From Candidatus Woesearchaeota archaeon (lineage in GTDB: Archaea > Nanobdellota > Nanobdellia > Pacearchaeales > GW2011-AR1): 64,000 nucleotides of DNA. Where the stretch lies: the NCBI GenBank assembly GCA_964385425.1, contig CAYLOQ010000001.1, positions 86,602 to 150,601 of the forward strand, read 5' to 3'. The translations under genes were made by a program, and so were the position numbers. Shown here in pieces: positions 4,653-24,968 of the stretch (position 1 is its first letter; the number at the start of each line of letters is the position of its first letter). The notes under the pieces are model-generated. The model was given only the letters and a program-made list of their open reading frames with translations, ran no database searches and had not been told where the DNA came from.

Positions 4653-5468
4653 TCACTTCCTATTACTGCTCTGCACCTCATTTCTAACTATCTGTCTAAC
4701 GTCTTTTCTTGAAAGCTTTTTCTTTATAGATTCTAAATTCAAAAGCCTAAGAGCTATTCCAGAACCAAAAATCAATAAACCAACAATAAAAACAATCCAA
4801 AATACGTTTCCAGATTTGTTAAAGAAAAATGAGACAAATTCTAGAGAAGATTGCCCTGCTATAATAGAAGAGAGACCTCCTAACTTTAAAAGAGGCAGGG
4901 ATGAAAGCGCTAATAAACCCCCAAAAATTATGGGAAAATTCATTTTTTGCTCTGTTAAGAAGGGGATTAATATGATTAAGACTATAGATACGAGGATGGA
5001 GAAATAAAATTTCTCTTTCCAGTAATCTTTTGCTTTTTCAGAAACCAAAAATAAAGGCAAAGATTCTTTTCCAAAACAATCCCAAAAGCCACAGTCATAT
5101 TCTTTGTAATATGTCTGTTCTATTATAGAATCAATACCTTGCTCAACAAAAGTTTCTAGGGGTTCATTCACCAGATCACAAGAAACTGTAAAATTATATC
5201 TCCCTTCACTAAAAACATACGCTGTATTATTTTGGCAGTAATCTTGCATAATTTCTCTGGCTTCTTCTAAATCCTCTGTTAAATTAAAATCACCCACTAT
5301 GGAACTTGTTTGGTCGTCTACAAATTCCTGTACAATTGGCACTAAACCAGATTTAACATTATCATACTGTAGAGATGTAGATAAAACCAAAAAAACATTT
5401 CCCAATAGAAGAGACAAGAATAGTAAGATGCCAACAATAACCAACAAACCTCCTCTAAAAAAACTCAT
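4653..5468 (-). CDS. Hypothetical integral membrane protein
   Basis: N-terminal TM helix and several C-terminal hydrophobic helices; 271 aa, good codon-like composition. Confidence 0.45.
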   Translation of the reverse strand: MSFFRGGLLVIVGILLFLSLLLGNVFLVLSTSLQYDNVKSGLVPIVQEFVDDQTSSIVGDFNLTEDLEEAREIMQDYCQNNTAYVFSEGRYNFTVSCDLVNEPLETFVEQGIDSIIEQTYYKEYDCGFWDCFGKESLPLFLVSEKAKDYWKEKFYFSILVSIVLIILIPFLTEQKMNFPIIFGGLLALSSLPLLKLGGLSSIIAGQSSLEFVSFFFNKSGNVFWIVFIVGLLIFGSGIALRLLNLESIKKKLSRKDVRQIVRNEVQSSNRK

Positions 5469-18254: not shown

Positions 18255-19781
18255 ATGGATATAAAGAAATTAATAGATTCATTAAGCCCTATTGAGAGAA
18301 AGATTCTCCCCCACATAGAAGAAGAGAGCTTGAGTGACATCTGCAAGAAGTCAAACTTGGACAAAATTAGTGCTGTAAGAGCGTTGGAGTATTTAAAAAA
18401 TAAAAAAATAATAAAGATATCTACTAAAAAAAAGAGAATAGTAGAGATAGGAACCAATGGAGCGCTCTACAAAAAAAAGGGCCTGCCAGAGAGAAGACTC
18501 TTAAATCTCTTGAATGAAAAAAGGATTCTTAAATTAGAAGATGCACAAGAGCAGAGCAGGTTGTCAGACGATGAATTTAAAGCTTCCCTGGGTGCATTGA
18601 AAAAAAAAGAACTTATAAATCTTAACAAAGGAAAAATAATTTTTAGTGCTAAAAAAGAAGAGATTTCTAAAAAGAGTTCTGAAGAATCCCTAATAGAGTC
18701 TCTTCCCCTAGAACATGATTCTCTCTCTAAAGAACAACTCCATGCCTTGAAATCTCTTCAGAGCAGAAGAGATATAGTACAAATAAAAGAAGAAAAAAAT
18801 ATAGAAATAGAAGTAACTGATTTAGGTAAAAAATTAATCAGGGGTGAGATAAAAGGACCAGGACTAATAGAACAAGTAACTCCTGAAACTCTAAGGAAAG
18901 ATTCTTCATGGAAAGGGAAAAAGTTCAGAAGATATGACATAACCCATCCTGTCCCAAGGATTAGTGGGGGGAAGAGACATTTTGTAAATCAGGCAGTTGA
19001 TTATGCGAGGGGGGTCTGGACAGACATGGGTTTTAAAGAAATGACTGGGAACCTTCTCGTAAGTTCTTTCTGGAACTTCGATGCGCTATTCACTGCACAA
19101 GATCATCCTGTTAGAGAGATGCAAGATACTTTTTTCATAGATAAAAAAATAGATCTACCAGAAAAAGCCTTAGTAAGAAGAGTAAAAGAGAGCCATGAAA
19201 TAGGTGTTGGAAAGGGGCATGAAAAAAGCAAGGGCTGGCAATATTCTTGGGATGAGGAAGAAGCGAAAAGACTAGTTATGAGAACACACACTACGTGTTT
19301 GTCTGCACAAACCCTAGCCAACCTAAAGAAAGAAAAAATGCCTGCTAAATTTTTCGCGATTGGTAAGTGTTTTAGAAACGAAACTGTTGATTGGAGTCAT
19401 AGTTTTGAATTCCATCAAACAGAGGGAATCGTCGTAGACAAGAATGTAAATTTTAGACACCTCCTAGGATACCTACAACAATTTTTCAAAAAAATGGGAT
19501 TTGAAAAAGTAAGATTCAGACCTGCTTATTTTTCATATACAGAACCCTCTGTAGAAATAGATGTATGGCACCCTGATAAAAAAGTCTGGTTGGAATTGGG
19601 TGGAGCTGGAATTTTCAGACCAGAGGTAACTATCCCTCTTCTTGGAGAAGCTATTCCTGTACTTGCATGGGGTCCTGGATTTGACAGGATATTGATGGAT
19701 TATTATAAAATAAAAGACCTCAGAGAGCTGTACAAAAACGACATTGCAGAACTAAGGAGAATGAAATTCTGGATAAAATAA
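18255..19781 (+). CDS. pheS: Phenylalanyl-tRNA synthetase alpha subunit (archaeal)
   Basis: 508 aa with N-terminal winged-helix repeats and class II core motifs (FFAIGKCFRNE, FEFHQTEG, GGAGIFRPEV). Confidence 0.85.
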   Translation: MDIKKLIDSLSPIERKILPHIEEESLSDICKKSNLDKISAVRALEYLKNKKIIKISTKKKRIVEIGTNGALYKKKGLPERRLLNLLNEKRILKLEDAQEQSRLSDDEFKASLGALKKKELINLNKGKIIFSAKKEEISKKSSEESLIESLPLEHDSLSKEQLHALKSLQSRRDIVQIKEEKNIEIEVTDLGKKLIRGEIKGPGLIEQVTPETLRKDSSWKGKKFRRYDITHPVPRISGGKRHFVNQAVDYARGVWTDMGFKEMTGNLLVSSFWNFDALFTAQDHPVREMQDTFFIDKKIDLPEKALVRRVKESHEIGVGKGHEKSKGWQYSWDEEEAKRLVMRTHTTCLSAQTLANLKKEKMPAKFFAIGKCFRNETVDWSHSFEFHQTEGIVVDKNVNFRHLLGYLQQFFKKMGFEKVRFRPAYFSYTEPSVEIDVWHPDKKVWLELGGAGIFRPEVTIPLLGEAIPVLAWGPGFDRILMDYYKIKDLRELYKNDIAELRRMKFWIK

Positions 19782-19782
19782 G

Positions 19783-20109
19783 ATGGAAATAGAAGAAATA
19801 AACAAGTTCATAAATGAAGAAATAAAAAGATTGGAAGAATATCATTCTGAAAAAGATAAAGATGAATTAACAATGGCTATGGGATTTAAGGTCGTTGAAG
19901 AAATTGGAGAATTATTTGAAGAAATGTTAAAAAAGAAGGGCTATCAAAGAAAGGACAAACTAGAAAAGCAAAGTGAAGAGGAAATAAAAAAGGAATTTGC
20001 CGATGTAATATTCACGGTTTTAATCTTGGCAAAAAGATTTGATATAGATATAGAAGACGCTATAAAAATAAAAATGAGTGAAATAAAAAAGAGAAAATAC
20101 ACAAAATAA
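19783..20109 (+). CDS. MazG-like nucleotide pyrophosphohydrolase
   Basis: All-alpha 108-aa protein with the EEIGELFEE metal-binding EExxE motif typical of MazG/NTP-PPase domains. It is wedged between pheS and pheT. Confidence 0.55.
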   Translation: MEIEEINKFINEEIKRLEEYHSEKDKDELTMAMGFKVVEEIGELFEEMLKKKGYQRKDKLEKQSEEEIKKEFADVIFTVLILAKRFDIDIEDAIKIKMSEIKKRKYTK

Positions 20110-20112
20110 AAA

Positions 20113-21759
20113 ATGGCCATAATAAACCTCAACAAAAAACTCTTTGAAAGGGAACTTGGAACCTTGGACTCCAAGATGAAGAACAGAATTGCTATGTTTG
20201 GGACTCCTATTGAAAGGATTACCAGAGACGAGATCCAGATAGAAATATTCCCGAACAGACCAGACCTGTCTTCATACCAAGGATTCAAAAGATCCTTCCT
20301 TGCTTTCTTAGGAAAGAAAACAGGGTTAAAGGAATACAGAATAAATAGTCCTGAAAAAAATTACCAGGTGTATATAGATTCTTCTGTGAGGGATGTTCGT
20401 CCTTATACTGCTTGTGCAATAATAAAGAATCTAAGATTGAATGACGAAAAAATAAAAGAGATAATTGAAATCCAGGAGAAACTGCACATCACTATCGGAA
20501 GAAAAAGAAAAAAAGTTGCAATTGGTATTTATCCCTTAGAAAAAATAAAGCTTCCGATAACCTTCAAGGCTTTAGAGCCAGACAAGATAAAGTTCATCCC
20601 CTTAGAAATGGGTAGAGAGCTTTCCGGACTTGAAATTCTTCAGAGACATCCTGCAGGTAGGAATTATGCCCATCTTTTAGCTGGAAAAGCTAAATTCCCA
20701 ATTTTCATAGATGCGAATAAACAGATATTAAGCATGCCCCCTATAATCAATTCTCAAGCAACAGGAAGAATAACAGAAAAAACCAGGGATGTTTTTGTAG
20801 AGTGCTCTGGATCTGATCTAAAAACTTTAAAACAATGTCTAAATATAATCGTTACGAGCTTAGCGGAAATGGGTGGAGATATTTATCAAATGAAACTAAA
20901 TTACGGAAAGACCCCGGATCTTACACCAAAAAAAGCGAGAATTTCCTTAGAAAATACGAACAAGCTCCTTGGATTGGAACTTAATGAAAAACAACTCAAA
21001 CAACTTATAGAGAAAATGGGCTATAATTATAAAGAGGGAACTGTTCAGGTCCCTGCTTGGAGAACAGATATTTTACACGAGGTCGACCTTATAGAAGACG
21101 TTGCAATAGCCTATGGTTATGATAATTTTATTCCAGAAATTCCAGATATATCCACAATCGGTGAAGAAAATCCGATAGAAGGGATAAAGAGAAAAATATC
21201 AGAAATTTTTTCTGGATTAGAAGTGCTGGAAGTTTCTAATTATCACCTAACAAATAAGAGAAACCAACTGATAAAAATGAGTGTTTTAGAAAAACAAGAG
21301 AAAAATCTTATAGAACTAGAAGAATCAAAAACAGATTTTACAATTTTAAGAAAAAACCTCACCCACCTTTTATTAAAAATTTTTTCAGAAAATGTAGATG
21401 CAGAGTACACACAAAAAATATTTGAAGTTGGAAAGGTTTTCAGATTAGAAGATTCCGGAAAAATAAAAGAGGTTGAAATGTTTGCCATGGCTCTCTCTCC
21501 AGGAAATTTCACAGAAATAAAACAAATATTAGAATATTTCTCAAGGATGACAGGCATACCCTTAAAATTGAAAGAGGGTGAAGAAACACCTTTACATTTT
21601 ATCAAAGGCAGAGTTGCTCAGGTATTTTTCAAAGGAGAGAAGATAGGGTTTCTTGGAGAAATCCATCCAAAAATTTTAAAAAGCTGGAAGATAAAAATGC
21701 CTGTAGCATTAATGGAAATTGAATTAGAAGAAATTTTTAAAGAATTGGAAAAAGATTAG
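20113..21759 (+). CDS. pheT: Phenylalanyl-tRNA synthetase beta subunit (archaeal)
   Basis: 548 aa with a B3/4 editing-like domain and a C-terminal class-II-like fold; it is operonic with pheS. Confidence 0.85.
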   Translation: MAIINLNKKLFERELGTLDSKMKNRIAMFGTPIERITRDEIQIEIFPNRPDLSSYQGFKRSFLAFLGKKTGLKEYRINSPEKNYQVYIDSSVRDVRPYTACAIIKNLRLNDEKIKEIIEIQEKLHITIGRKRKKVAIGIYPLEKIKLPITFKALEPDKIKFIPLEMGRELSGLEILQRHPAGRNYAHLLAGKAKFPIFIDANKQILSMPPIINSQATGRITEKTRDVFVECSGSDLKTLKQCLNIIVTSLAEMGGDIYQMKLNYGKTPDLTPKKARISLENTNKLLGLELNEKQLKQLIEKMGYNYKEGTVQVPAWRTDILHEVDLIEDVAIAYGYDNFIPEIPDISTIGEENPIEGIKRKISEIFSGLEVLEVSNYHLTNKRNQLIKMSVLEKQEKNLIELEESKTDFTILRKNLTHLLLKIFSENVDAEYTQKIFEVGKVFRLEDSGKIKEVEMFAMALSPGNFTEIKQILEYFSRMTGIPLKLKEGEETPLHFIKGRVAQVFFKGEKIGFLGEIHPKILKSWKIKMPVALMEIELEEIFKELEKD

Positions 21760-21780: not shown

Positions 21781-23196
21781 ATGGAAGATGTTTACGCCAA
21801 AATTAATTCAATAGAAAATTTAACATTGGCTTGGCAAAATGCAAAGAAAGGGAAGACTAAAAAAAGATATGTAAAAAGATTCCAGAAAAATCTAAAAAGT
21901 AATTTATTATCTCTACAAAAAGAACTTAAAAATCATACCTACAAAACAAGACCTCAAAAGAAATTCATATTGAGAGATCCTAAAACAAGAAAAATATTAA
22001 AATCCGTTTTTAGAGACAGAGTTATTCATCATGCGTTATGTAATATTATCACTCCTGTTTTTGAGGGGGGATTTATCTATGATTCACACGCCAATCAAAT
22101 AGGAAAGGGGACGCTGAAGGCGTTAGAAAGATTTGACAAATTTAAAAGAAAAGTTTCTAAAAATAACTCTAGAAATTGCTATGTTTTAAAGGCAGATATA
22201 AAACACTATTTTGAAGAGATAGATCATAAAATCTTGATAGATATCATAAAAAATAAGATTAAAGATGAGAGAGTTATATGGCTCGCCTATAAAATCTTAA
22301 AGAGTAGCAGAGAGAGAAACGAGCAATCCATTAAAGATAAAGGCATGCCTTTAGGAAATTTAACATCGCAATTTTTTGCTAACGTTTACCTTAATGAATT
22401 AGACAAATTTGTTAAACACAAGTTAAGAGCAAAATATTATATAAGATATGTTGATGATTTTGTAATTCTGCATAGATCTAAGGAACAGCTTGAAAAGTGG
22501 AAGAATAAAATAGATATCTTTCTAAAAGAAAAATTGGATTTAAAATTACATCCAAATAAATCTCAGATTTTAAAATTAGAAAAAGGGATTAAATTCTTAG
22601 GCTTTAGAATTTTCAATTATCATAAGCTTTTAAGAAAGAGCAATATGAAACATTTTGAAAGAAAATTAAATCATATGAAAATAATGCTTGAGGAAGATTT
22701 ATTAAATAGAGAAGAAATTGTAGAGAAATTAGAAGGTTGGCTAGCTTATGCTGTCAAGGGTAATACTCATAAATATAGAAAATATATAGTTCAGAATTTT
22801 AATAGACTTTTTCCTATAGATAAAACAATCCCAATAAAAAATAAGAAGAAACATTTTAACTTTTTGAAAAAGGTTGATGAAAGTACTTTGGAATTTTCAG
22901 TTCAAAAAACTCTTTTTATGTTTTGCAACGGAATGAAAATCAAAGACCTTGCTGAGAAAAGAGGGATAAAAGAAGGGACAGTGTGGAAGCATTTAATAAA
23001 TTTGATAGAGCACAAACAAATTTTAGTATCTCAAGTTTTGCCTAATAAAAAGATTAGACTAATTGCAAATAAGATTTATAATAAAAAAGATGGGCTGAAG
23101 GTGATTAAAAGAAGATTGAAAAGCCATAATATTAATTATGATGAAATTGCTTGTGTTTTGGCAAGTATAAAATCAAAAAATAAAAAAGTGTCCTAG
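21781..23196 (+). CDS. DGR-type reverse transcriptase
   Basis: RT motifs 1-7 are present (DRVIHHAL; SHANQIGKGT; LKADIKHYFEEIDH; YIRYVDDFVIL; LGFRI). Motif 4 reads LGNLTSQFFANVYLNELD, i.e. the DGR-specific [ILV]GxxxSQ rather than the group II intron QGxxxSP. There is a ~150-aa C-terminal extension with a possible HTH (IKDLAEKRGIKEGTVWKHL). Confidence 0.8.
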   Translation: MEDVYAKINSIENLTLAWQNAKKGKTKKRYVKRFQKNLKSNLLSLQKELKNHTYKTRPQKKFILRDPKTRKILKSVFRDRVIHHALCNIITPVFEGGFIYDSHANQIGKGTLKALERFDKFKRKVSKNNSRNCYVLKADIKHYFEEIDHKILIDIIKNKIKDERVIWLAYKILKSSRERNEQSIKDKGMPLGNLTSQFFANVYLNELDKFVKHKLRAKYYIRYVDDFVILHRSKEQLEKWKNKIDIFLKEKLDLKLHPNKSQILKLEKGIKFLGFRIFNYHKLLRKSNMKHFERKLNHMKIMLEEDLLNREEIVEKLEGWLAYAVKGNTHKYRKYIVQNFNRLFPIDKTIPIKNKKKHFNFLKKVDESTLEFSVQKTLFMFCNGMKIKDLAEKRGIKEGTVWKHLINLIEHKQILVSQVLPNKKIRLIANKIYNKKDGLKVIKRRLKSHNINYDEIACVLASIKSKNKKVS

Positions 23197-23215
23197 TAAG
23201 CAAGTCCAAGTTATT

Positions 23216-23300
23216 AAAGGCGAAACGACCATTGTCGTTGCTAAGATTAGTCCTCGCATTCGACCTAGCCCCGCTGCCGAGCCTGTTGACGTACCACGCC
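23216..23300 (-). repeat. DGR template repeat (TR); sense strand is the minus strand
   Basis: Its 85 bp are identical to 23705-23789 except at 9 positions. All 9 carry T in this copy and C in the other on the + strand, i.e. A vs G on the minus strand. The minus-strand sense reads AWYVNRLGSGARSNARTNLSNDNGRFA, with the AAC/AAT/AGC codons typical of TRs. Confidence 0.75.
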
Positions 23301-23467
23301 GCCCAAGTTAGCCTATTTACTTCTTGTTTTCACCACCACTTCACACATTAGGTGTCGTGATTGTATTTTATAAGAGCAAGCTCCCATCGTAAATAAACGT
23401 ATAGCCTAGCTTACTTCGTAAAAACGGTTGCTAGGACAAAATTATATGATAAAAACGCTATAAAAAT

Positions 23468-24400
23468 CTATTGACTTGTTAAATCATCAATCGCTTTTCT
23501 AACCTCAGACTCATTAGCAGAACCAATATAATCTCCAATTACAGAATAAATTTGATCAGTAGTTAATAGTCTTTTTCTTAATTGGTCTCTTTCATCTAAA
23601 GCACTTCCAATTTGATCAATTTGTCCAGATTGTAACGTTCCTTCTAAACTTTGAAGTTGAACTCTTGCTTTATCGATGTCAACCTTAGCGTCTCCGACGC
23701 CATAAAAGGCGAAACGACCATCGCCGCCGCTAAGATTAGCCCTCGCACTCGACCCAGCCCCGCCGCCGAGCCTGCTGACGTACCACGCCTTCAAGACTCC
23801 TTTATCGCTAACATCAGGCAAATCTTGTCCCATCATTGTAACATCTTTATCATTAATATATTCTCTTCCTAATTCAAATGTCTTGCCAATAATTTCTGCA
23901 ACTTCATCTCCCGACCTTGCGAATTTAGAATCAACATGATCTGGATGTCCTAATTTTGTTAAAAGTAATTTGTGCTTCATTGCTTGACTTTCTGTTAAAT
24001 CTTTATTAAGAATTAATCCTTTTCTTTGAAGAGTATAAACTCCGTTTCCTTCTAATTTTTCCCATCTGCCGTCAACATCCAAGTTTACTCCGTAATTCAC
24101 TAGCTCTTCATCAGGATTGATTAAGCCTAAACCAAATCTAGCAACCTCTGTCAATTCTCTACTTCCAGTCTCATAAGGTAAAATAACTTTTACAGTTTCT
24201 CCTTTTGTTGCTGATAATGTTGAAGTATCCCAATATTGATCCCTTATTTCAGGATTTTCAATTCCATATTTTCTTATGTCAGCTTCTGAAAGAATAACAC
24301 CTTCGCCTTTTTCATATCTTGCTAAAAGCACTGGTGAGGTATCTACATTTCTACCATAACAAGGTTCTATTGTCCTTCCTTCTAATTGGATGTTTTCCAT
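23468..24400 (-). CDS. DGR target (variable) protein
   Basis: 310 aa with no signal peptide. The VR lies at aa ~205-231 (KAWYVSRLGGGAGSSARANLSGGDGRFAFYGVGD) and is followed by an ~80-aa helical C-terminal tail. Confidence 0.7.
   Translation of the reverse strand: MENIQLEGRTIEPCYGRNVDTSPVLLARYEKGEGVILSEADIRKYGIENPEIRDQYWDTSTLSATKGETVKVILPYETGSRELTEVARFGLGLINPDEELVNYGVNLDVDGRWEKLEGNGVYTLQRKGLILNKDLTESQAMKHKLLLTKLGHPDHVDSKFARSGDEVAEIIGKTFELGREYINDKDVTMMGQDLPDVSDKGVLKAWYVSRLGGGAGSSARANLSGGDGRFAFYGVGDAKVDIDKARVQLQSLEGTLQSGQIDQIGSALDERDQLRKRLLTTDQIYSVIGDYIGSANESEVRKAIDDLTSQ
23687..23701 (-). promoter_or_regulatory. GC hairpin immediately 3' of the VR (5-6 bp stem GCGTC/GACGC, loop GGA on the sense strand)
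   Basis: A perfect inverted repeat, g-GCGTC-GGA-GACGC-t, 4 nt downstream (sense) of the VR homology end. The TR has no counterpart. Confidence 0.5.
23705..23789 (-). repeat. DGR variable repeat (VR) inside the target gene
   Basis: It matches the TR at 76 of 85 positions. It encodes AWYVSRLGGGAGSSARANLSGGDGRFA in frame in ORF 23468-24400. Confidence 0.75.
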
Positions 24401-24482: not shown

Positions 24483-24968
24483 CTAACCGAAGTAACCTTT
24501 ATTGTTTGCTTCTGATTTGTTATCCCAATTTTGATTTATTTTATCCAAAATAACCAAAAAGTCTCTCTTTATTTCCTTCCATAGATCGTAAGAATACCTT
24601 ACAAATTCAGCTTCTTTTTCTTCAGAAAATTCTGTGTCAAGCCTGATCAAGGTAATTTCATTTTTTGTAAGTTTTTTATAGATGTCTGATGCCTTTTTTC
24701 TCTCTTCTGTTCCAAGGGTCTTAATAATAGAAAAAACAAACATAGGAGCATTTACGGGATTAAGAAGAGTTTCTATAAATCTCATATATCCCCCCAATTT
24801 ATCTGCCATGAACTTCCTTATCTCCCTTATCAAGATATCTGTCTCAACCTCTGCCGCTTTTTCTATCTGAAAATCTTCGTTAAGTTCCCTAAAATCAGGA
24901 AGGTCGTATTTCCTTTTGATTACTTCATAATTTTTCTTTAATTTTTCCAGTTTAGATTTTTCTTCCAT
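24483..24968 (-). CDS. Hypothetical helical protein upstream of the DGR target, a candidate DGR accessory factor
   Basis: 161 aa, predicted all-alpha and charged, co-oriented with the target gene. No Avd signature could be verified. Confidence 0.35.
   Translation of the reverse strand: MEEKSKLEKLKKNYEVIKRKYDLPDFRELNEDFQIEKAAEVETDILIREIRKFMADKLGGYMRFIETLLNPVNAPMFVFSIIKTLGTEERKKASDIYKKLTKNEITLIRLDTEFSEEKEAEFVRYSYDLWKEIKRDFLVILDKINQNWDNKSEANNKGYFG

Follow-up and report, generated by a model that had tools for sequence, protein, structure and literature searches.

The stretch analysed here (hereafter the window, that is, the whole 64,000 nucleotides taken from contig CAYLOQ010000001.1 of a Candidatus Woesearchaeota archaeon) carries an archaeal diversity-generating retroelement (DGR) that is, judging from its sequence, complete and probably functional. 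It consists of a reverse transcriptase (RT) gene, a template repeat (TR) and a target gene for the variable protein, in which the variable repeat (VR) is followed by a small GC-rich hairpin, referred to as HP1 (table 1). The DGR context proposed in an earlier note on this DNA was borne out by the adjacent RT gene, by the 91-nt TR/VR pair and by the TR/VR mismatches, all 12 of which are located at TR adenines on the minus strand, where 22 of the 91 TR bases are adenines. With a probability that we put at about 0.8, HP1 is the cis-acting target-site hairpin of a DGR of the Nanoarchaeota type.

Table 1. Features of the DGR in the window, with positions numbered from the first letter of the stretch.
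Feature	Position	Strand	Remarks
Target (variable protein) gene	23468-24400	-	310 aa; predicted C-type-lectin-like fold, as in Nanoarchaeota AvpA
VR	23699-23789	-	91 nt, inside the target gene; 489 nt from the TR, in the same orientation
HP1	23687..23701	-	g-GCGTC-GGA-GACGC-t
HP1 core stem	23700-23696 / 23692-23688	-	Loop GGA at 23695-23693
HP1 sense strand as oligonucleotide			d(GCGTCGGAGACGC)
RT gene	21781-23196	+	C-terminal HTH_40; LGNLTSQ and YVDD in translation
TR	23210-23300	-	91 nt, convergent with the RT gene
RT-16 RNA (Rfam RF03019)	23303-23435	-	Adjoins the 5' end of the TR; score 73.2 bits (gathering score 50), E = 1e-11
TR 3' flank	23169..23209	-	TTGGACTTGCTTACTAGGACAC, then oligo-T; overlaps the last RT codons and stop codon, on the opposite strand

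The hairpin and the end of the variable repeat

Read on the minus strand, HP1 runs G23701 - GCGTC - GGA - GACGC - T23687, with five Watson-Crick pairs and an outer G-T pair, and the 5-bp GC stem, outer G-T and GGA loop had been given correctly in the earlier note, both in sequence and in position. A seventh pair, T23702-A23686, is possible through the G-T wobble and matches the 7-bp stem of the family (TAGCGTC/GACGCTA). The hairpin lies inside the coding sequence, as the note had also stated, and takes up codons G234 V235 G236 D237 A238 of the target protein; its loop together with the closing pair reads C-GGA-G, that is, a GNA triloop closed by C-G. Folding of both strands, which had been suggested as a check, gave -6.3 kcal/mol for 31 nt of the sense strand as single-stranded DNA (z = -3.2, with none of 200 shuffles as good) and -4.5 kcal/mol for the antisense strand.

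The GC content of the window is 34%, and a scan over its whole length returned HP1 as the sole perfect stem of 5 bp that has four or more G/C pairs and encloses a 3-nt loop. No equivalent stem with such a loop exists elsewhere in the 64 kb, a point on which the earlier note had let its claim depend. When loops of 3-5 nt were allowed, three such stems were found, and mononucleotide shuffles of the local 300 nt produced a comparable hairpin in 1.3% of trials. The helix could be extended outwards in the window (CCTT...AAGG, one bulge of 4 nt), but relatives do not conserve this extension and we dropped it.

Unbroken identity between TR and VR ends in ...GCCTTT at 23705, 4 nt before the core stem, and its last part is an adenine-free GC-rich tract (GGTCGTTTCGCCTTT, 23719-23705) that is the same in both repeats. 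The statement that HP1 starts 4 nt after the VR homology therefore holds for uninterrupted identity, but not for the TR-like bases, which extend to 23699 and take in the outer G and the 5' arm's first two bases. At 23699-23704 the VR reads TAT GGC and the TR AAT AAC, differing solely at TR adenines. None of 33 family VRs keeps AAT at the first of these codons, and at the next one 28 of the 33 family members have AGC, the window has GGC and the related locus L044 has AAC. In two pairs of near-identical loci, described below, both codons are unchanged and the last differing position lies 17 nt upstream. From these sequence comparisons, we read the two codons as a fixed difference between the initiation of mutagenic homing site (IMH) of the VR and its TR counterpart (IMH*), not as ordinary variable codons. 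It is the change from A in the TR to G in the VR (AAC/AGC) that gives the stem its outer G-C pair, and the hairpin both abuts and overlaps the IMH. The 3' limit of information transfer would probably be set by the adenine-free tract, 4 nt before the core stem. With gaps allowed, the TR flank (AAC-TTGGACTTGCT) may resemble the hairpin (AGCGTCGGAGACGCT), but we set this resemblance aside as unproven; the divergent TRs of L006, L021 and L027 do not have it.

The hairpin in related loci

Public data hold 114 homologues of the target, from Woesearchaeota, Pacearchaeota and Nanoarchaeota assemblies, and we fetched 50 related loci, with protein identities of 45-80%. Taken with the 34% GC content and the archaeal-type phenylalanyl-tRNA synthetase genes beside the RT gene, the taxonomy of these homologues assigns the window to a DPANN archaeon (one of the Woesearchaeota, Pacearchaeota or Nanoarchaeota). 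Fourteen unique loci, the window included, have both a TR and an RT gene, and in all of them the order is constant, with the target gene first, its VR followed some 500 nt downstream by the TR, and last the RT gene, convergent and on the opposite strand. The hairpin is intact in the 14 loci, where its loop lies 21 nt after the Arg codon of GRFAF and its stem has 5-8 bp, varying at the outer end (consensus TAGCGTC-GGA-GACGCTA). Among 17 comparison loci with at least 900 nt of downstream sequence and no TR or RT, it is intact in six (Fisher p = 1.5e-4), and in the remaining ones the stem was lost by point disruptions, deletions or truncations. The hairpin travels with the TR, the RT-16 RNA and the RT carrying HTH_40. 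Loss of the stem in close relatives, which the earlier note had named as the result that would speak against it, was found in no relative with TR and RT.

The flank of the TR is different. The VR flank folds in all 14 loci, at -4.6 to -7.1 kcal/mol (mean -5.8), whereas the TR flank gives 0 kcal/mol in 12 of the 14 (mean -0.24) and also 0 in the equivalent 31 nt of the window, in agreement with the previous reading of a hairpin that is absent from the TR.

Codon choice at the hairpin is strongly biased. Outside VR and hairpin, the GC content at third codon positions (GC3) of the target genes is 0.16. At the hairpin, Val is encoded by GTC in 29/29 cases (3.1% of synonymous codons in the background), Asp by GAC in 31/31 (19.4%), Ser by AGC in 28/30 (11.6%) and the Gly of the loop by GGA in 31/32 (53.5%); as a trinucleotide, the GGA loop is present in the window and in 31 of 33 aligned family members. 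The third base of the Ala codon that follows the core stem is free (GCT 19, GCA 4, GCG 4, GCC 2), showing that these sequences have diverged enough for synonymous change to be seen. Compensated stems were found in two loci with TR and RT (GCGCC/GGCGC in L031 and AACGTC/GACGTT in L044). Covariation within the close family alone is weak, with four compensated cells, and 7-17 of 500 shuffles perform equally well.

The covariation became decisive once more distant DGRs of the RT-HTH_40 type were added. We fetched 10 loci for RTs that are 56-65% identical to that of the window, and eight of them had TR/VR pairs, with nine VRs in total; the other two (L056 and L058) had no detectable TR/VR or RT-16 and are uninformative. 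The distant VRs end in GRFVG-IAPEAL or LVGVAAEPL instead of GRFAFxSVGDA, and then, at the same position, comes AGCGCC-[G/A]GA-GGCGCT (AGCGGC-GGA-GCCGCT in L054). Here the frame is shifted by one base with respect to the family of the window, so that the loop straddles the codons for Pro and Glu, and the hairpin encodes IAPEA or VAAEP where the window family has SVGDA. Eight of nine distant TR flanks have no GC-rich hairpin, and in that of L054 there is no more than a stem of 4 bp (AGCC-ATT-GGCT).

In the combined alignment, the hairpin follows all 22 TR-linked VRs and 110 of 110 core-pair cells are Watson-Crick. The fourth pair (11-17) is T-A in 12 VRs, C-G in nine and G-C in one, and the outer pair (8-20) is G-C in 21 and A-T in one; both the covariation score and the count of compensated cells exceed those of 500/500 shuffles and of every slid control. 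The earlier note had proposed to look for compensatory stem changes while the protein varies, and these were found, namely the T-A, C-G and G-C changes and the different peptide in the second family. Because of the rare codons fixed against a GC3 of 0.16, the compensatory pair changes and the independence from frame and peptide, we conclude that selection acts on the nucleotide sequence and keeps the hairpin base-paired, as the note had proposed when it spoke of maintenance at the DNA level.

Direct evidence that elements of this family are active comes from two pairs of relatives. L007, from a Woesearchaeota assembly, and L030, a contig of a JGI metagenome, represent the same 9,209-bp locus with 12 differences, all of them in the VR and at TR adenines. 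L022 and L025 share 4,804 bp with 19 differences, 17 in the VR, of which 15 are at TR adenines; the two other VR differences are at non-adenine positions next to adenines. Pooling both pairs, 27 of 29 VR differences are located at TR-adenine positions, beside an intact hairpin. After position 4804, inside the C-terminal extension, L025 diverges fully from L022, by rearrangement or as an assembly chimera. The VR of the window, with 11 A-to-G and one A-to-T substitutions relative to its TR, differs strongly from the mixed A-to-N spectrum of relatives such as L007/L030. This excess of A-to-G could be due to selection for loops rich in Gly, Ser and Asp, to a bias of the RT or to chance.

In most relatives, a second hairpin (HP2, ACGCC-GAA-GGCGT) is present about 12 nt 3' of HP1 (e.g., positions 3868-3885 of L001), and the mini-hairpin is thus often doubled in the family, as a tandem of a GGA loop and a GAA loop. 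HP2 encodes N-A-E-G-V, also with rare codons (GCC in 24/26, GGC in 23/26 and GTC in 18/26). At the junction 23684|23683, the window shows a 15-nt in-frame deletion of HP2 (AK|VDIDKAR versus AKTNAEGVDVDKAR), and its next Val codon is GTT. HP2 seems dispensable, since about 9 of the 14 loci with a TR have it.

Several single loci deserve mention. At positions 4712-4714 of L021, the loop is TGA instead of GGA, which places an in-frame stop at the hairpin, with TR and RT intact. In L036 (960-990), the VR is followed by a flank of the TR type (AAC TTG GGC TTC GCT CTA CTA GGA TAA), as would result from recombination between VR and TR or from a collapse in the assembly. L003 and L020 have two VR-like copies (4702-4926 and 5208-5420), with a hairpin after each and no RT nearby, and L019 has a deletion that spans from one hairpin to the other. 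L008 and L024 (GTT GGA GAT) were examined as cases in which the peptide is kept and the hairpin lost, but the alignment of their hairpin codons is ambiguous and we did not use them as evidence.

Known target-site hairpins and the reading of HP1

In the DGR of Bordetella phage BPP-1, efficient homing depends on a GC-rich hairpin or cruciform that directly follows the VR; its stem acts through structure and its loop through sequence, in a strand-specific manner, and the hairpin/cruciform was demonstrated by cleavage with a structure-specific nuclease (Guo et al. 2011, PMC3240598). The requirement for homing is experimental for BPP-1, and the same was reported for a Legionella DGR (Wu et al. 2018, PMC5758913). 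In phage DGRs, the stems are 7-10 bp long with GRNA loops of 4 nt, and the elements are non-coding, located beyond the stop codon and 4-34 bp from the VR (PMC3240598). HP1 is similar to the BPP-1 type in being a GC-rich inverted repeat 3' of VR and IMH that is present in the target only, in the conservation of stem structure with variable sequence, in a sense-strand loop that starts with G and ends with A, and in its 4-nt distance from uninterrupted homology. It differs from the published elements in its 5-bp stem (5-8 bp in relatives), its 3-nt loop and its coding position, and the window cassette has no avd and has its TR on the strand opposite the RT gene. The GNA/GRNA loops that the earlier note attributed to DGR hairpins are accordingly right as to the 4-nt GRNA loops of phage DGRs, but a 3-nt loop within a coding sequence is the GRA variant of Nanoarchaeota.

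This variant was described by Paul et al. (2015, PMC4372165), who report hairpins with GRA trinucleotide loops within DGR target genes of Nanoarchaeota (DUSEL4), with TGGGGT as IMH and TGGAAT as IMH*. According to Handa et al. (2016, PMC5006420), AvpA has a post-VR extension, and its coding sequence holds a hairpin and encodes disordered residues. The window has in common with Nanoarchaeota DGRs a GC-rich hairpin in the target gene after VR and IMH, with a 3-nt loop of the GRA form (here GGA), an AvpA-like lectin target with a post-VR extension and hairpin codons in a linker predicted to be poorly ordered, and an IMH and IMH* that differ by G versus A. The relative L054 has exactly the IMH TGGGGT and the IMH* TGGAAT of DUSEL4. 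Unlike these published sites, the IMH region of the window reads TTTTATGGC in the VR and TTTAATAAC in the TR, its stem is GCGTC/GACGC, and its target has no detectable sequence similarity to AvpA; moreover, the parts of Paul et al. and Handa et al. available here make no mention of a tandem hairpin with a GAA loop such as the HP2 of most window relatives. The window element fits the Nanoarchaeota description exactly, and the BPP-1 type only in principle. The hairpin class is already described in Nanoarchaeota DGRs, and the window is a further, well-supported example of it.

The relation of the target to AvpA was visible by fold comparison alone. No domain was found in the target with Pfam and NCBIfam, and a phmmer search of the PDB with the target gave no match. 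An AlphaFold2 model (from an alignment of 41 sequences) had a mean predicted local distance difference test score (pLDDT) of 89, and a Foldseek search with it returned a sole significant PDB match, 5IOO_A (Nanoarchaeota AvpA; E = 1.2e-7, TM-score 0.66 normalised to the target), with 12% identity in the structural alignment. In the model, a beta strand at residues 228-234 (GRFAFYG) closes the globular domain, residues 237-242 have pLDDT below 50, and helices come next, the post-VR C-terminal extension of about 75 residues being helical. Codons 234-238, those of the hairpin, are thus predicted to lie where a poorly ordered linker begins.

HP1 can also be compared with the DNA mini-hairpins d(GC-GNA-GC). 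According to a review of these structures (PMC13037366), only GNA triloops closed by C-G are unusually stable, those with N = G melting at 73 C. The C-GGA-G of HP1 fits this rule, and the CC-GAA-GG of HP2 in relatives is identical to the CCGAAGG mini-hairpin cited there for ssiA. Two features differ, as the second pair from the loop is T-A in place of G-C and 3/9 VRs of the related family have AGA loops.

If the window element works as that of BPP-1 does, the sense strand would form a small and stable hairpin of DNA, or a cruciform would be extruded from the duplex. Such a structure may single out the VR rather than the TR as recipient, and it would raise the efficiency with which the VR is replaced by adenine-mutagenised complementary DNA made from the RT-16/TR RNA. 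The fit of C-GGA-G to the d(C-GNA-G) motif offers a physical rationale for the loop and suggests that the sense hairpin may be more stable than its complement, whose loop is TCC, and this could provide a strand asymmetry like that of BPP-1. We infer the homing role of the window hairpin from this analogy.

It is barely credible that HP1 has no function as nucleic acid and is a by-product of the peptide S/G-V-G-D-A, a spill-over from the GC-rich VR or the result of chance. The SVGDA peptide is indeed conserved in the family and the adjoining VR is GC-rich, but the rare C-ending codon is used at every synonymous stem site (GTC and GAC make up 3% and 19% of the background) and the same hairpin encodes another peptide in another frame elsewhere; these codon and frame data exclude chance as well as a constraint on the protein alone. 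The hairpin sequence is missing from the TR and therefore cannot have been copied in from there, no other such hairpin occurs in the 64 kb, and recent copying of one sequence is excluded by the 45-80% protein identity and the free adjacent synonymous site. A hairpin that acts as RNA in the target mRNA, by pausing the ribosome between the lectin domain and the helices, by affecting transcript stability or processing or by pairing with the TR RNA, seems to us improbable as well. The hairpin is transcribed within the coding sequence, its covariation is equally compatible with RNA pairing, and there are G-T variants (G-U in RNA) in L003, in L017 and in the outer pair of the window. Nevertheless, retention tracks TR and RT and not the gene (14/14 versus 6/17), wobble variants of the core are confined to loci without RT, and the position of the hairpin follows the end of the TR homology even as frame and downstream protein change, which one would not expect of a role in translation linked to the architecture of the protein. 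Furthermore, no Rfam family matches the hairpin, and its experimentally characterised counterpart acts on DNA (PMC3240598).

The palindrome GCGTC-N3-GACGC might also be a binding site in the duplex for a dimeric protein, either the HTH_40 of the RT or a host factor, and would then still be a mark of the target. The near-invariant stem sequence of the close family and the C-terminal helix-turn-helix of an RT that has no Avd gene nearby would suit such a site, and compensatory changes keep palindromic symmetry as well as pairing, so that covariation does not discriminate here. A dimer site, however, has no need for the conserved non-palindromic loop ([G/A]GA, with GGA at 31/32 Gly codons against 54%), which fits the d(C-GNA-G) mini-hairpin motif (PMC13037366). 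The nuclease cleavage and strand-specific loop action in BPP-1 (PMC3240598) and a stem length that varies between 5 and 8 bp at the outer end are also at odds with it, and we regard a duplex site as unlikely.

Some observations sit less easily with a target-site hairpin that acts through its structure. The stem of the window is the weakest of its family, with five Watson-Crick pairs because AGC became GGC, and is shorter than the BPP-1 optimum of 8-10 bp; in addition, the window has lost HP2. The distant loops are GGA in six and AGA in three of nine VRs, so the argument from GNA loops and sheared G-A pairs is not universal. On the close family, where the stem is near-invariant, recognition of structure and of sequence are inseparable. 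Six relatives keep the hairpin with no TR or RT nearby, and these may be remote targets or point to another role of the hairpin.

We raise tentatively a further step beyond the target-site reading, which is that in DPANN DGRs of the RT-HTH_40/RT-16 type, which have no Avd, the hairpin may do more than enhance efficiency downstream of a separate IMH: it may itself tell recipient from donor, and the helix-turn-helix domain of the RT may read the mini-hairpin directly, taking over the targeting done by accessory proteins elsewhere. The idea of the hairpin as discriminator arises from the TR-like sequence that enters the 5' arm, where the TR A/VR G difference makes the outer G-C pair and the TR version cannot fold. 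As to the target-site hairpin, the comparative data show, quantitatively and irrespective of reading frame, that selection acts on the Nanoarchaeota-type triloop hairpin as a structure of the nucleic acid. They leave the current picture of how DGRs work unchanged and fix the target-site cis-elements of the window DGR. The loss of the hairpin that accompanies the loss of TR and RT is useful for annotating DPANN DGR targets as live or fossil.

Donor RNA, reverse transcriptase and neighbouring genes

The RT-16 RNA was described as a structured motif near RT genes, in a work that gave a DGR role to RT-10 only (Weinberg et al. 2017, PMC5737381). The window match to RF03019 agrees with that description, as it is full-length, above the gathering score and beside an RT gene. 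Full-length RT-16 (66-78 bits), ending 0-2 nt from the first base of the TR and on the TR-sense strand, was found in 21/21 TR-bearing loci, namely the window, L001, L006, L007, L011, L016, L021, L022, L027, L028, L031, L037, L044, L051-L055, L057, L059 and L060, and was not found in the eight scanned loci without TR. RT-16 thus has the look of a leader at the 5' end of the template RNA in RT-HTH_40 DGRs, and belongs to the donor RNA, not to the hairpin.

On its other side, the TR ends 13 nt from the stop codon of the RT gene (23194-23196 on the plus strand), and no inverted repeat was found in the TR 3' flank of the window (23169..23209). AGGAC followed by a T-run comes after the TR in 14/14 TR-bearing loci, as CTAGGAC in 13 and ACAGGAC in L031. 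The flank CTAGGAC(A/G)..TTTTTT(A)TTTT is kept in nearly all TR-bearing relatives even though the preceding 12-15 nt differ, and the final RT codons that it overlaps are the rare codons GTG TCC TAG. The oligo-T run is likely the 3' end of the TR RNA; it could be an archaeal terminator of this RNA, and the AGGAC box could be a priming or processing signal.

The RT matched RVT_1 with E = 4.5e-24, with HTH_40 at residues 373-460. A motif of the form (I/L/V)GxxxSQ is typical of DGR RTs. No DGR-specific RT model was found in NCBIfam or PADLOC, where the best matches were generic RT models or a group II RT model that scored below its own cut-off. The RT-HTH_40 family has more than 5000 homologues at E <= 1e-20, and the top 120 all carry RVT_1 and HTH_40. 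One of the distant homologues, in L056 (a Logan SRR13727534 contig), is a protein of 568 aa encoded beside phage capsid and cement-protein genes, with no TR/VR or RT-16 within 3 kb, and may be a viral copy of the RT family whose repeats lie elsewhere; an RT-based scan of viral contigs returned no relative.

TR and RT may lie on opposite strands in DGRs, and 29% of DGRs have no accessory genes (Wu et al. 2018, PMC5758913), so that the architecture of the window is unusual but not new. No accessory domain (Avd, HRDC or others) was found in the three open reading frames (ORFs) scanned, those of the RT, the target and a 161-aa product. The latter ORF (24483-24968, minus strand), located upstream of the target, has no Pfam domain and was rejected as an Avd-like accessory gene, as none of the 50 related loci has it. 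Directly upstream of the RT gene (18255-21759, plus strand) lie the genes for the alpha (508 aa) and beta (548 aa) subunits of an archaeal-type phenylalanyl-tRNA synthetase.

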